From a virus (lineage: Duplodnaviria; Heunggongvirae; Uroviricota; Caudoviricetes): a stretch of DNA of 32,094 nucleotides. The notes under the pieces were generated by a model. It saw only the letters and a program-made list of their open reading frames with translations. It did not search any database and was not told where the DNA came from. A program made the translations under genes and the position numbers. Within the stretch, counting starts at the first letter, position 1. Every line of letters starts with the position of its first letter. Positions 771 through 30,797 of this stretch are shown here, piece after piece. The stretch is from positions 1 through 32,094 of the IMG/VR virus record IMGVR_UViG_2711768042_000002; one strand, written 5' to 3'.

Positions 771-1022
771 ATGGGAAGAGATGACCCGCAATTTAATCTG
801 CGGCTACCTTACGAATTAAAGGAAAAACTAAAACAGCGAGCCAAATCCAATGGCCGCTCTCTTAATTCAGAATTAGTTCAGATAGTGACTGATGCTGTAT
901 CAAAGCCATCCAAAATTTCAGGCTATCGAGACGATGCGGAACGCATCGCTGATGAGCAGTCAGAGCTTGTTAAGAAGATGGTGTTTGATACGCTGAAGGA
1001 TTTGTACAAAAAACCCACCTGA
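771..1022 (+). CDS. mnt: Mnt-like ribbon-helix-helix repressor (immI region)
   Basis: 83-aa ORF MGRDDPQFNLRLPYELKEKLKQRAKSNGRSLNSELVQIV..., closely matching P22 Mnt as recalled (Arc/Mnt RHH N-terminus). Confidence 0.85.
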   Translation: MGRDDPQFNLRLPYELKEKLKQRAKSNGRSLNSELVQIVTDAVSKPSKISGYRDDAERIADEQSELVKKMVFDTLKDLYKKPT

Positions 1023-1038
1023 AGGTGGGTTAATTTTT
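1012..1038 (+). terminator. Rho-independent terminator after mnt
   Basis: AACCCACC-TGAA-GGTGGGTT hairpin followed by AATTTTT. Confidence 0.6.
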
Positions 1039-17675: not shown

Positions 17676-18148
17676 ACCTCAATCTCTCTGACCGTTCCGC
17701 CAGCCTCTTTGAATTTTGCAATCAGGCTGTCAGCCTTATGCTCGAACTGACCATAACCAGCGCCCGGCAGTGAAGCCCAGATATTGCTGCAACGATCGAT
17801 AGCCTGACGGATATCACCGCGATCAATCATCGGTAAAGCGCCACGCTCTTTAATCTGCTGCAATGCCACAGCGTCTTGGCTTTTCGGAGAAAAATCTTTC
17901 AGGCCAAGCTGTTTACGGTAAGCATCCCACCAACGGGAAAGAAGCTGGTAACGTCCTGCGGCTGTTGATTTGAGTTTGGGGTTTAGCGTGACAAGTTTGC
18001 GAGGGTGATCGGAGTAATCAGTGAATAGCTCTCCGCCAACAATGACGTCATAACCATGATTTCTGGTTTTCTGACGTCCGTTATCAGTTCCCTCTGACCA
18101 CGCCAGCATATCGAGGAACGCCTTACGTTGATTATTGATTTCCACCAT
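17672..18148 (-). CDS. R: Endolysin, lambda R-type lytic transglycosylase
   Basis: 158 aa, [39 protein letters not shown]... essentially lambda R as recalled. Confidence 0.9.
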
Positions 18149-18455
18149 CTTCTACTCCGGCTTTTTTAGCAGCGAAGCGTTTGATAAGCGAACCAATCGA
18201 GTCAGTGCCGATGTAGCCGATGAACACGCTCGTTATATAAGCGAGATTGCTACTTAGTCCGGCGAAGTCGAGAAGGTCACGAATGAACCAGGCGATAATG
18301 GCGCACATCGTTGCGTCGATTACTGTTTTTGTAAACGCACCGCCATTATATCTGCCGCGAAGGTACGCCATTGCAAACGCAAGGATTGCCCCGATGCCTT
18401 GTTCCTTTGCCGCGAGAATGGCGGCTAACAGGTCATGTTTTTCTGGCATCTTCAT
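18132..18455 (-). CDS. S: Holin, lambda S-type with dual-start motif
   Basis: 107 aa, [39 protein letters not shown]... matches lambda S; Met1-Lys2-Met3 dual start; GGGGG-containing leader upstream. Confidence 0.9.
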
Positions 18456-18697
18456 GTCTTACCCCCAATAAGGGGATTTGCTCTATTTAATTAGGAATAA
18501 GGTCGATTACTGATAGAACAAATCCAGGCTACTGTGTTTAGTAATCAGATTTGTTCGTGACCGATATGCACGGGCAAAACGGCATGAGGTTGTTAGCGCA
18601 GCCTCTTGCCACCCGCTTTCACGAAGGTCATGTGTAGAAGGCCGCAGCATAACTATCACTGATGAATTCAGGATAGCCAGTGGCTACGGCTCAGTTA

Positions 18698-18773
18698 TGG
18701 TGCTGGTTAACGGACTTGAACCGCTACCCATTCGCTTACAAGGCGACCGCTCTACCATTGGAGCTAAACCAGC
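18698..18773 (-). tRNA. tRNA-Thr (anticodon UGU)
   Basis: Hand-folded cloverleaf: 7-bp perfect acceptor stem GCTGGTT/AACCAGC, D-stem GCTC/GAGC, anticodon loop CTTGTAA, T-arm AGCGG-TTCAAGT-CCGTT, 5-nt variable loop, encoded CCA; one mismatch in anticodon stem. Confidence 0.75.
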
Positions 18774-18778
18774 ATGTT

Positions 18779-18853
18779 TGGTGGGACAGCGTGGACTCGA
18801 ACCACGATAAGAAGGTTAACAGCCTTCCGCAATGACCTTTATACGACTGACCC
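18779..18853 (-). tRNA. tRNA-Asn(GUU)-like, possibly degenerate
   Basis: Anticodon arm GAAGG-CTGTTAA-CCTTC, T-arm CGTGG-TTCGAGT-CCACG and CCA end are canonical; acceptor and D stems each have one mismatch. Confidence 0.45.
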
Positions 18854-18854
18854 A

Positions 18855-18899
18855 AATAAAAAAAGCCACCGTTGCAACTTAAGAGTCACTAACGGCAGC
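18855..18899 (-). terminator. Hairpin plus U-tract just downstream of Q (candidate Q/late-leader terminator)
   Basis: Minus strand GCUGCCGUU...AACGGUGGC (9 bp incl. two G-U) then UUUUUUUAUUU; loop unusually long (17 nt). Confidence 0.35.
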
Positions 18900-18916
18900 T
18901 TACCCTCTAATTATGG

Positions 18917-19435
18917 CTAAATGGCTAATTGCATGTCAAGGCTTTTAACGGCAACATGCTTAACTTTCTCAACACGTTTACGCATTTTGAAAGCATTTTG
19001 CATTGGTTGGTACAAAACAAATAACGACGCTTTCAGGATGTCGTCAATTTCATTTCTACAGGTTGCCAGTGAAGGTTTTCTCCATCCCTCACCACCACGC
19101 CCACACATCTTGCGTGGCTTTGCAGTCGCGTGATAGTAGGATGCAATTGCTCGCTTAGATGAACCATGAGCGTAGTAGCTGAGGAGGATGCCAAAGGCTT
19201 TCTTGTCAATGTACATGACGGAATCGACGACCTGAGAAATCAACATTCCATCATCATCATTGCACATTGGCCTTGTCATAACTCTTCCCGGCTCTACGCT
19301 CTCCATGAACTTCGCTATTACGCTGCTCATGCGCTTTTCCAGACGACCTGAATAAACCCATGCGCCCCACAGTTCAAGCCAGCCATTCAGCCACTCGTGC
19401 TGTTCTTTGGTGAGGTTTAGTTCTCTTATGCCCAC
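18917..19435 (-). CDS. Q: Late antiterminator Q-like protein (non-lambda type)
   Basis: 172-aa ORF in Q position between nin region and lysis genes; WLELWGAWV motif reminiscent of 82/21-type Q; not lambda Q. Confidence 0.6.
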
Positions 19436-29134: not shown

Positions 29135-29423
29135 TAAGCGTGAAATATCGCAAATAATCGCAAGTTTTACTGATGAAGATTACGAGCGAATCAACAGTGA
29201 AGTTGATCGCCTCTGCAAACGTTGCGACCCAATAAGCGAAATGCTTCGCTTATATAAACCAGATGAACACACTAAGGACGCTATCGACTGGCTGGAAGAT
29301 GATGACTGTAACTATCAGGAAAAAGCCGCTGAATGGTTCTGGGATGCAATAACCGAAAGAGTTAAGGCTGAATATGCCTTCGCAATATTCAAACGCAGAC
29401 ACATTTTTGGAGAAGCTGCATGA
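29112..29423 (+). CDS. Hypothetical 103-aa acidic protein upstream of recT
   Basis: Track ORF; AGGAG RBS; stop overlaps recT start. Confidence 0.6.
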   Translation: MMILTLNDKREISQIIASFTDEDYERINSEVDRLCKRCDPISEMLRLYKPDEHTKDAIDWLEDDDCNYQEKAAEWFWDAITERVKAEYAFAIFKRRHIFGEAA

Positions 29424-30331
29424 GCAATATCGTTGAATTCGTTAAACAGCAGGAGCAGTTATTCTGCGGAGCATTGACTGAACAGACGGTGACATGGGCT
29501 AAGGAAAGCCAGTTTGCAATTCAGTATTTCCAGAAAAACGATTACCTTGCTAAAACGGCACTGGCAAATCCAACCAGCGCACAGAACGCCATCATCAATG
29601 TTGCGGCGATCGGCATCACCTTAAACCCGGCCAGCAAACTGGCTTATCTGGTTCCGCGCGACGGCATGGTGTGCCTTGATATCAGTTATATGGGATTGCT
29701 CCATATTGCAATGGAGTCTGGTGTTATCTCATGGGGTCAGGCAAAACTTGTTCATGCTAACGATACCTATGAGTCAAACGGGCTTGATAAAGCACCAACC
29801 CATAAATACAACGCCTTCGGTGATCGTGGTGATATCGTTGGCGTTTACTGCACAGTTAAGACGCCAGCAGGTGATTATCTAACGGAAGAGATGAGTCTGG
29901 CTGAAATTGAGGCTGTAAGGAAAACAAGCAAGGCGGCCTTCAGAGATAAAGGACCATGGGTAAATCACTGGAATGAGATGGCGCGAAAGACGGTCGTAAA
30001 GCGTGCAAGCAAGTATTGGCCTAAGGCATCACGTCTTGATAGTGCTATTCACGTACTAAACGAAGAAGAAGGTGTGTGGACTGAACCAGTTATGCCGCAC
30101 AAATCAGAGGAAGATATCCGCGAAGATGAACGGAAACGCCAGCAGGAAATAACGGATAAAGCACAACTTCTTTGTGATGAAATGGCTCAGGCAGAAAACA
30201 TGGATGATTTGAAGCGATATTTTGCAGAAGCATATCGCCTGACATCTAGAATGAAATTGCAGCAGAACGTACAAGCCATTTACGCAGAATGCAAAGCGAA
30301 ACTGGAGGTTGCCCGTGAGCAAACTGTATGA
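29420..30331 (+). CDS. recT: RecT-family single-strand annealing recombinase
   Basis: 303 aa; ...KTSKAAFRDKGPWVNHWNEMARKTVVKRASKYWP... RecT family signature. Confidence 0.85.
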   Translation: MSNIVEFVKQQEQLFCGALTEQTVTWAKESQFAIQYFQKNDYLAKTALANPTSAQNAIINVAAIGITLNPASKLAYLVPRDGMVCLDISYMGLLHIAMESGVISWGQAKLVHANDTYESNGLDKAPTHKYNAFGDRGDIVGVYCTVKTPAGDYLTEEMSLAEIEAVRKTSKAAFRDKGPWVNHWNEMARKTVVKRASKYWPKASRLDSAIHVLNEEEGVWTEPVMPHKSEEDIREDERKRQQEITDKAQLLCDEMAQAENMDDLKRYFAEAYRLTSRMKLQQNVQAIYAECKAKLEVAREQTV

Positions 30332-30797
30332 AATTGCCAATGAATACGCAAAATTGATGGATTCAGATTTAGAACCAGAGATGATTGCTGACACAATAGA
30401 AGGCATGGAAGGAGAATTTACCGATAAAATAGAGCAACTTCTTTCCGTCATTAAAAATGAATCTGGTTATGCTGAACGCCTCAAGGAAGAGGCAAAGTCG
30501 CTGAATGAGCGAGCCGCAGTAATTCAAAATAAGATTGACAGCATCAAATCATATATAGCGTCATCGCTTGAAATGGTTGGCAAGAAAAATATTCGAGCAG
30601 GTATTCACCAGGTAACAATCCGCAAACCGTCAGAAATTGTAGAAATCATCGACTCAAGCGCCATTCCTCCTGAATACGTTGAGTTTGAAACGACAATTAA
30701 AGCCGACAAACTGGCAATCAAACACCAACTAAAAGCAGGAATAAATATCCCCGGCGCTCAACTCAAAGTTGGGAAACCTTCACTTCTTATCAAATAA
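30315..30797 (+). CDS. Hypothetical coiled-coil protein, possibly Mu Gam-like / Gp157-like DNA-end-binding nuclease inhibitor
   Basis: GTG 6 nt after GGAGG (track ORF from TTG 30309); N-terminal coiled coil, C-terminal segment loosely resembling Mu Gam as recalled; function is inference. Confidence 0.5.
   Translation: MSKLYEIANEYAKLMDSDLEPEMIADTIEGMEGEFTDKIEQLLSVIKNESGYAERLKEEAKSLNERAAVIQNKIDSIKSYIASSLEMVGKKNIRAGIHQVTIRKPSEIVEIIDSSAIPPEYVEFETTIKADKLAIKHQLKAGINIPGAQLKVGKPSLLIK

Follow-up and report, generated by a model that had tools for sequence, protein, structure and literature searches.

A tRNA-Asn/tRNA-Thr pair of the phage 21/Sf6 type in the late leader of a P22-like Escherichia coli phage

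A study of phage L noted that in some P22-like phages the late operon carries tRNA genes at its 5' end, those of Sf6 encoding tRNA-Asn and tRNA-Thr (PMC8022706). The Sf6 genes (Sf6t01 and Sf6t02) lie directly after the terminator tR' and are annotated as "similar to phage 21", in which the pair (CPT_21_64/65) again follows the terminator directly. The pair is also annotated in BTP1, SPN9CC, vB_SosS_Oslo, S135 and CurroJimenez. Other combinations occupy the same slot elsewhere: Asn and Leu(UAA) in L and ST64T, Asn, Thr and Gly in JLK-2012, and Asn, Phe, Thr and Arg in the Klebsiella phage ST16-OXA48phi5.2. The Stx phage 933W has an ileZ-argN-argO island downstream of Q, which decodes rare Ile and Arg codons, not those for Asn or Thr. 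In a transcriptome of BTP1, the lytic operon was placed directly after the tRNA genes, and the two tRNA genes were set apart in the list of genes highly expressed in lysogen cultures, which implies that they are expressed (PMC7067206).

A function for a tRNA-Thr of this kind emerged from work on Old, the effector of P2-lambda interference, the lethal action of which is cleavage of host tRNA-Thr(UGU) (Govande et al. 2025, PMC12445682). Its cuts lie after the C within paired CNG motifs, at nucleotides 28-30 and 40-42 of the anticodon stem, and it cleaves further tRNAs, including Asn(GUU), more slowly (PMC12445682). The tRNA-Thr of phage 21 (tRNA-Thr21), whose anticodon stem is shorter and which carries the changes C28U/G42A, protected cells and resisted cleavage in vitro, and both the stem shortening and the motif change were required for resistance (PMC12445682). 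Arm swaps on tRNA-Thr6, another phage tRNA-Thr, showed that resistance depends chiefly on the anticodon arm (PMC12445682). Extra host tRNA-ThrU gave little protection against Old, whereas the phage alleles protected; these phage Thr tRNAs suppressed Old toxicity only in part, and did so from plasmids against Old plus Gam, not in a phage 21 infection (PMC12445682).

A second nuclease, AriB of the PARIS system, cleaves the host tRNAs for Lys(UUU), for Thr(UGU) and for Asn(GUU) between nucleotides 40 and 41, its determinants being U39 and nucleotide 41 (Belukhina et al. 2025, PMC12409363). Among its targets, UGU is a prime one and GUU a secondary one, and the Lys, Thr and Asn tRNAs of phage T5 jointly neutralise PARIS and rescue infection (PMC12409363).

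The stretch of DNA analysed here, 32,094 nt in its entirety and referred to below as the window, represents an E. coli phage of the P22-like (Lederbergvirus-type) kind with a mosaic genome; of the 25 kb used as query, 69% is covered at 97% identity by vB_EcoP-720R6, the best match. The features of its late leader region are, in the order of transcription:

18917..19435, minus strand: gene for a Q-type late antiterminator (172-aa ORF; matching genes are annotated as Q in Sf6, HK75 and CUS-3)
18910..18939, minus strand: putative late promoter PR' (TTGACA, 18-nt spacer, CATAAT; 11 of 12 consensus positions in a promoter scan)
about 18858..18901, minus strand: tR', intrinsic terminator of the short late leader RNA (predicted hairpin and U7)
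18779..18853, minus strand: tRNA-Asn(GUU)-type gene (75 nt, CCA encoded; ARAGORN and Rfam)
18774..18778, minus strand: spacer AACAU between the two tRNA genes (5 nt)
18698..18773, minus strand: tRNA-Thr(UGU) gene (76 nt, CCA encoded; ARAGORN and Rfam)
18456..18697, minus strand: conserved non-coding stretch between tRNA-Thr and the holin gene (242 nt, part of the late transcript)
18132..18455, minus strand: holin/antiholin gene S (107-aa ORF; relatives annotated as holin), the first protein-coding gene of the late operon

An earlier note, made from the sequence alone, had placed two tRNA genes between Q and the holin gene, 5 nt apart on the strand of the late transcript, and had likened them to the tRNA island of certain lambdoid prophages. 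Gene order, strand and spacer are as it described, and the likeness is borne out by the annotated pairs at the same place in Sf6, phage 21, BTP1 and SPN9CC. Judged by sequence and position, the pair is the known phage 21/Sf6 late-leader tRNA module, and the feature is thus one already described: it lies directly 3' of tR' downstream of Q, it has the arrangement Asn, 5-nt spacer, Thr, and its sequence is nearly identical to the annotated copies. From Q to S, over 1 kb, the window shares 98% identity with Sf6, CurroJimenez, HF4s and 720R6, and the tRNA pair itself is 97-99% identical to the annotated tRNA-Asn and tRNA-Thr of Sf6, phage 21, BTP1 and others. With phage 21 and Sf6, the window shares the Asn-Thr order, the 5-nt spacer, the encoded CCA and 168 of the 171 nucleotides. 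Among relatives, the spacer occurs in two alleles, AACAT and AATAT. The 171-nt pair was found in 369 of 5426 complete E. coli genomes (~7%), and 108 Asn+Thr islands were present among the 120 IMG/VR matches listed.

The surroundings of the pair are only in part shared by these relatives. Phage 21 differs in its Q-binding element and in its lysis genes, and has in common with the window tR', both tRNAs and ~95 nt downstream; since the neighbours on either side are different, the tRNA block moves as a mosaic unit. HK75 and CUS-3 have the same Q, tR' and S genes as the window, with an unrelated, unannotated insert in place of the tRNAs; the simpler view that these two phages merely lack tRNAs was rejected on account of that insert. 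The 242-nt stretch downstream of tRNA-Thr is conserved in Sf6, HK75 and CUS-3, with or without tRNAs, and is followed by the lysis genes S, R and Rz. The Asn genes of L, JLK-2012 and the Klebsiella phage all belong to the same family as that of the window.

Transcription of the pair would depend on Q. The 3' end of the Q gene overlaps PR', the site of which coincides with the Sf6 annotation "P R' putative late promoter". The terminator folds into a long hairpin, AAGCUGCCGUUAGUGACUCUUAAGUUGCAACGGUGGCUU, followed by a U-run, and the same sequence is annotated as a terminator in Sf6, HK75 and phage 21. The tRNA-Asn gene starts 4 nt past the U-run, and the promoter scan found no separate promoter for the tRNA genes. 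There is therefore no room for a promoter of their own, and the tRNAs are expected to be transcribed by read-through of tR'. On this anatomy, and on what is known of late regulation in lambdoid phages, RNA polymerase modified by Q would start at PR', pass tR' and include the tRNAs in the late transcript, from which host enzymes would excise them: RNase P at the 5' ends, and exonucleases by trimming the 3' ends down to the encoded CCA.

Both genes have the features of tRNAs. ARAGORN, which the earlier note had proposed as a check, called exactly two tRNAs in the 32,094 nt, both on the minus strand. Against the Rfam tRNA model RF00005 (gathering score 29), tRNA-Thr scored 61.2 bits (E=4e-11) and tRNA-Asn 52.7 bits (E=9e-09). 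Chance cloverleaves were rejected on these scores and on conservation. The core nucleotides U8, A14, G18-G19, U33, purine 37, UUCRANY and G53-C61 are complete in tRNA-Asn, and in tRNA-Thr all but A14 are present. Moreover, the tRNAs of the Klebsiella phage differ from those of the window by compensatory changes: in tRNA-Thr from U-A to C-G at 3-70 and 6-67, and in tRNA-Asn from A-U to G-C at 6-67, from G-C to A-U at 7-66 and from A-U to C-G at 28-42. These compensatory pairs show that the genes are maintained as tRNAs.

The earlier note had described the Thr gene as a clean cloverleaf with an encoded CCA. The CCA stands, and is encoded by tRNA-Asn as well; the cloverleaf is not entirely clean, since G27 and A43 are mismatched at the top of the anticodon stem, the T stem includes a G·U pair, and position 14 is C instead of A. 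The D loop with C14, CAAUGGUA, is identical to that of phage 21 tRNA-Thr, which is functional in vivo, and G27·A43 is kept in the Klebsiella phage. The acceptor stem (GCUGGUU/AACCAGC) and the anticodon UGU are those expected of a substrate of ThrRS, and A73 is shared with host thrU. The determinants of E. coli ThrRS are G1-C72, C2-G71 and anticodon nucleotides G35 and U36. A review assigns ThrRS recognition in general terms to acceptor-stem pairs and anticodon nucleotides (PMC9976931). The only difference from the phage 21/Sf6 gene is A26G (plus-strand coordinate 18748), and the G26 allele is carried by 27 of the 117 IMG/VR copies listed.

A comparison with host tRNAs had also been suggested; made against thrU and asnT, it found identical anticodon loops and diverged stems. 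In tRNA-Thr, the divergence is focused on the anticodon stem, where 8 of 10 positions differ from thrU, as against 19 of 63 elsewhere (p=0.004) and none of 7 in the anticodon loop. The arm reads GUCGC-CUUGUAA-GCGAA in the window and ACUGA-CUUGUAA-UCAGU in the host. At nucleotides 28-30/40-42, where Old cuts, tRNA-Thr has UCG/CGA in place of the host CUG/CAG, and its anticodon stem is shortened by G27·A43 to 4 bp. Its anticodon arm is identical to that of tRNA-Thr21, with the same 4-bp stem and no paired CNG motif, nucleotide 26 being the sole position at which the two tRNAs differ. Because the arm is identical, the published resistance to Old should be transferable to the window phage, and to the ~7% of E. 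coli genomes that carry the module. The function has been established for this near-identical allele of phage 21, and the published anti-Old role can be assigned with good confidence to the tRNA-Thr gene of the window, as far as its sequence goes. Counted against that role is the finding that the window phage encodes a Mu-Gam-like protein, not lambda Gam, and may not trigger Old.

A role against PARIS is suggested by similar features. Both tRNAs of the window share their anticodons with host tRNAs that are targeted by Old and by AriB. At nucleotides 36-41, tRNA-Thr reads UAAGCG (UAAUCA in the host) and tRNA-Asn UAACCU (UAAUCC in the host); both are thus without U39 and changed at nucleotide 41. 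The Thr and Asn tRNAs of T5, which have the same anticodons, are likewise without U39 and different at nucleotide 41. T5 differs in that it makes ~24 tRNAs from promoters of its own, with distantly related sequences, whereas the pair in the window lies inside a Q-dependent late operon and is without tRNA-Lys. Since tRNA-Lys(UUU) is the prime target of PARIS, the pair could not alone defeat the characterised PARIS of B185.

The Asn gene requires a more cautious description. The earlier note had found one mismatch each in the acceptor and D stems, and these are indeed present as U4·U69 and U13·U22. It had further supposed that the copy may be degenerate or specialised. The mismatches do not support this, and degeneracy on their account was rejected: both are found in every copy of the family, including that of the Klebsiella phage, which keeps them despite its compensatory changes at other pairs. 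Because they are retained alongside such changes, U4·U69 and U13·U22, like G27·A43 of tRNA-Thr, are best regarded as conserved traits of the family and not as decay. The supposition nonetheless turns out right by chance, the copy being anomalous through two substitutions. One is A24G (plus-strand coordinate 18830), which turns U11-A24 into U11·G24; the other, which the note had missed, is G73A (plus-strand coordinate 18782), at the discriminator position.

These two changes appear to be private to the window. Among the 117 IMG/VR copies listed, G73 is present in all and G24 in none. G73 is also the base in phage 21, Sf6, L, JLK-2012, the Klebsiella phage, P1, N4, Cyrano, T5 and host asnT. Of 373 matching E. 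coli records, from 367 genomes, none carried the A73 allele or was identical over the 61 nt spanning nucleotide 73, and a string containing A73 had no match in IMG/VR (two scans), GTDB representative genomes, JGI metagenomes, a phage collection or the 5426 E. coli genomes. In an ungapped comparison of 506 nt between the window and 21 comparable copies, A24G and G73A were the only window-private changes, both of them within tRNA-Asn, which is otherwise the least polymorphic block (minor-allele frequency per site 0.003, compared with 0.014-0.029 in the flanks).

In E. coli, the identity of tRNA-Asn resides in the anticodon and G73, and A73 is a member of the Lys identity set (PMC9976931). The anticodon loop of the window copy, CUGUUAA, is that of host asnT, and supplies the G34-U35-U36 expected of an AsnRS substrate; the discriminator, A73, is not the G73 expected. 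On its sequence, this copy is better described as a gene of the tRNA-Asn(GUU) type whose discriminator is mutated than as a proven Asn acceptor. The change probably weakens charging by AsnRS and leaves the copy impaired. It is quite possible, at a little less than even odds, that the gene is a decaying or poorly working copy, the RNA of which is made but charged poorly or, at worst, mischarged. The loss of the base that AsnRS requires in favour of a Lys-type one, the uniqueness of A73 across all copies and collections scanned, and the coincidence of both private changes in tRNA-Asn all favour this view. On the other hand, the copy has an intact cloverleaf, with its anticodon loop, T loop and CCA undamaged, and its Rfam score is 52.7 bits; two changes in 75 nt fit a lineage divergence of ~2%; and a base difference could be a sequencing error. 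G73A may have arisen by decay, by such an error or as something adaptive.

Whether tRNA-Asn evades nucleases is also less clear than for its partner. At nucleotides 28-30/40-42, it has AAG/CUU in place of the host CGG/CCG, and its anticodon stem consists of five Watson-Crick pairs. Of the ten positions of that stem, seven differ from asnT, as do 29 of 63 positions elsewhere; a divergence focused on the anticodon stem was rejected as not significant (p=0.19). The gene has diverged everywhere from asnT and therefore bears no specific signature of nuclease evasion. Two further observations speak against such a role: the relative in the Klebsiella phage has regained a paired CNG motif, and the Asn copy of P1 keeps U39. 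By analogy with tRNA-Thr, tRNA-Asn may nevertheless have the same replacement role.

It could be argued that the tRNAs simply top up the host pool for late expression and have no anti-nuclease role. Codon usage was compared with a 50-kb sample of MG1655 containing 35 annotated genes. In the phage, 28% of Thr codons are ACA, in late and early genes alike; the share is 10% in MG1655 and 4% in highly expressed host genes. Per 1000 codons, ACA occurs 17.1 times in phage late genes and 5.3 times in MG1655 (~3-fold; Fisher p=4e-12). Host tRNA-ThrU is, moreover, low in abundance (PMC12445682). Codon supply is thus a real co-explanation for the Thr gene. For the Asn gene, it was proposed in the phage L paper, where AAC accounts for 24 of the 25 Asn codons of the coat gene (PMC8022706), and in the coat gene of the window the count is 17 of 20. 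The case is weak for this gene: Asn codons number 49.6 per 1000 in the phage and 37.3 in the host (~1.3-fold), and the host has four asn genes. As the whole explanation, supply seems unlikely. AGA, AGG, TCA, ATA and CGA are enriched 2.6- to 4.3-fold, similarly to ACA or above it, and have no matching tRNA in the phage; HK75 and CUS-3, with the same Q and lysis genes, manage without tRNAs; and supply leaves unexplained both the focus of tRNA-Thr divergence on the anticodon stem and the poor protection that extra host tRNA-ThrU affords against Old when compared with phage alleles. The two roles are compatible and not mutually exclusive. Heavy use of ACA also leaves the phage more exposed to the loss of tRNA-ThrU.

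A non-translational role, in which the tRNAs serve as RNase P punctuation that frees the late mRNA or as a target for recombination or integration and decoding is incidental, is very improbable: the slot is indeed a hot spot of mosaicism, sharply bounded and with contents that can be exchanged, a hybrid tRNA-Thr of the JLK-2012 type, with its 3' two-thirds like host thrU, suggests recombination through tRNA sequence, and the slot of HK75 holds a tRNA-like element without an anticodon arm, but conservation extends to the anticodons, the anticodon loops and the identity elements read by synthetases, all four arms are kept by compensatory changes, decoding of ACA is restored in vivo by the Thr allele of phage 21 (PMC12445682), and an attachment site would be expected beside int and not at the tRNA slot.

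The explanation we favour, with a probability of about 0.65, is that the two genes are a genuine late-leader tRNA pair, the products of which act as late decoders, tRNA-Thr being mainly an anti-nuclease replacement. Under this explanation, the phage would have decoders of its own for ACA (and related ACN codons) and for AAC/AAU during late protein synthesis, and these decoders would be unlike the host tRNAs in the anticodon stem. The main role of tRNA-Thr would most likely be to replace host tRNA-ThrU when this is destroyed by Toprim nucleases that attack the anticodon stem and are carried by rival elements: P2 Old and, probably, AriB of PARIS. As a secondary benefit, it would add capacity for ACA, which the host uses rarely and the phage often.

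The same two decoders recur in unrelated settings. P1, N4, Cyrano, JLK-2012 and the Klebsiella phage all have small tRNA sets, in which Asn(GUU) and Thr(UGU) are the members that never vary. In P1, Asn(GUU) and Thr(UGU) are adjacent, in this order and with a 2-nt spacer, accompanied by Ile and located downstream of the ban promoters; N4 has Asn, Ser, Thr and Pro; and Cyrano has Asn, Thr and Ser, with the Asn-Thr order of the window and a 2-nt spacer. The Thr genes of P1, N4 and Cyrano are 81-85% identical to that of the window, whereas their Asn genes belong to another family (GAUGGUG...). Unlike the window, P1 and Cyrano keep CNG motifs in their Thr copies, just as P1 keeps U39 in tRNA-Asn. 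The recurrence fits a shared selective pressure on these two decoders, of whichever kind.

Since the tRNA pair has been annotated ever since Sf6 and phage 21 were sequenced, the feature itself adds nothing new. The anticodon of the Asn partner is a known secondary target of both PARIS AriB and P2 Old. We tentatively propose, while giving the idea somewhat less than an even chance, that Asn(GUU) and Thr(UGU) constitute a minimal two-tRNA counter-defence kit, in which tRNA-Asn is no mere passenger and the pair replaces host tRNAs lost to P2 Old, PARIS AriB and their relatives. If true, this would explain the constancy of Asn and Thr in the tiny tRNA sets of 21/Sf6-like phages, P1, N4 and Cyrano-like phages. 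It would also explain why the pair comes first in the late operon, where the phage would not survive a halt in translation. The natural G73A variant of the window may provide a built-in control for the importance to the phage of charging its tRNA-Asn.

A slot that follows the tR' terminator and lies ahead of the holin gene holds the tRNA pair in the window, and in relatives without the pair it is occupied by a tRNA-like element, about 130 nt in length and absent from the annotations. Copies were located in these comparison records:

HK75 (L002, NC_016160), about 901-1030, minus strand: tRNA-like element
PDP110P2: tRNA-like element
CUS-3 (L003): part of the tRNA-like element
Salmonella phage INT55 (L134), about 625-745: tRNA-like element
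Pantoea phage PdC23 (L133), about 601-744: tRNA-like element

The acceptor stem of the element is 7 bp long (UGUGGUG/CGCCACA), and RNAfold recovered it without guidance, together with the D arm (GCUC-AAUGGC-GAGC) and the T arm (GCCGG-UUCGAUU-CCGGC). The place of the anticodon arm is taken by about 78 nt that fold as two hairpins. It is not called by ARAGORN under default settings, and the only Rfam match is to the ends of tmRNA, at 20 bits and below threshold. About 90 records of Salmonella siphophages hold copies at about 94% identity, and a single copy with 78% identity is found in the Pantoea phage; the T stem shows one compensatory change, from C-G to A-U. The element may represent an undescribed phage tRNA-like RNA.

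Between the slot and the holin gene lies a further segment:

18456-18697, minus strand: non-coding stretch of 242 nt, from tRNA-Thr to the holin start

This stretch is kept in Sf6, HK75 and CUS-3 whatever occupies the slot, and phage 21 shares only its first ~95 nt. It has no annotated function anywhere.

A span of 506 nt, from PR' to 240 nt beyond tRNA-Thr, was compared with 21 comparable copies. The window differs from all 21 at two positions only, both within tRNA-Asn, which is otherwise the most conserved block of the region:

18782, + strand coordinate: nt 73 of tRNA-Asn
18830, + strand coordinate: nt 24 of tRNA-Asn

The rough chance that both private changes would land in tRNA-Asn is (75/506)^2, or ~0.02. 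The neighboring tRNA-Thr opens its D loop with a C at nt 14 (window 18760, + strand coordinate), as opposed to the near-universal A14 of tRNAs, and this C14 is common to the copies of phage 21, Sf6 and the Klebsiella phage.

The order tRNA-Asn(GUU) then tRNA-Thr(UGU) is repeated in unrelated coliphages that have only three to four tRNAs:

P1 (L135), 1425-1578: tRNA-Asn(GUU) then tRNA-Thr(UGU)
N4 (L136), 1337-1586: tRNA-Asn(GUU) then tRNA-Thr(UGU)
Cyrano (L131), 1473-1625: tRNA-Asn(GUU) then tRNA-Thr(UGU)

In P1 and Cyrano, the two genes adjoin with 2-nt spacers. The gene tciA lies downstream of the pair in P1, with two small genes intervening, and comes after the tRNA island in JLK-2012.

Inhibition of RecBCD activates Old of phage P2. 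The early-left operon of the window bears on this point:

29420-30797, + strand: early-left operon

It encodes an annealase of the RecT type, along with an end-protection protein that resembles Gam of Mu and is not lambda Gam. As Old responds to RecBCD inhibition, the phage may or may not trigger it at all.

A different form of tRNA-Thr is found in JLK-2012 and in 9 of the 117 IMG/VR copies surveyed:

JLK-2012 (L129), 488-563: hybrid tRNA-Thr(UGU)

Nucleotides 1-25 of the hybrid are of the phage 21 type and nucleotides 26-76 are like host thrU; in most copies, G42U/U43C cuts the anticodon stem to 3 bp. The JLK-2012 gene is annotated as tRNA-Thr in GenBank, and ARAGORN at default settings does not call the hybrid. 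Its sequence suggests an origin by recombination between a phage gene and a thrU-like gene, and the hybrid may be another route to nuclease resistance.
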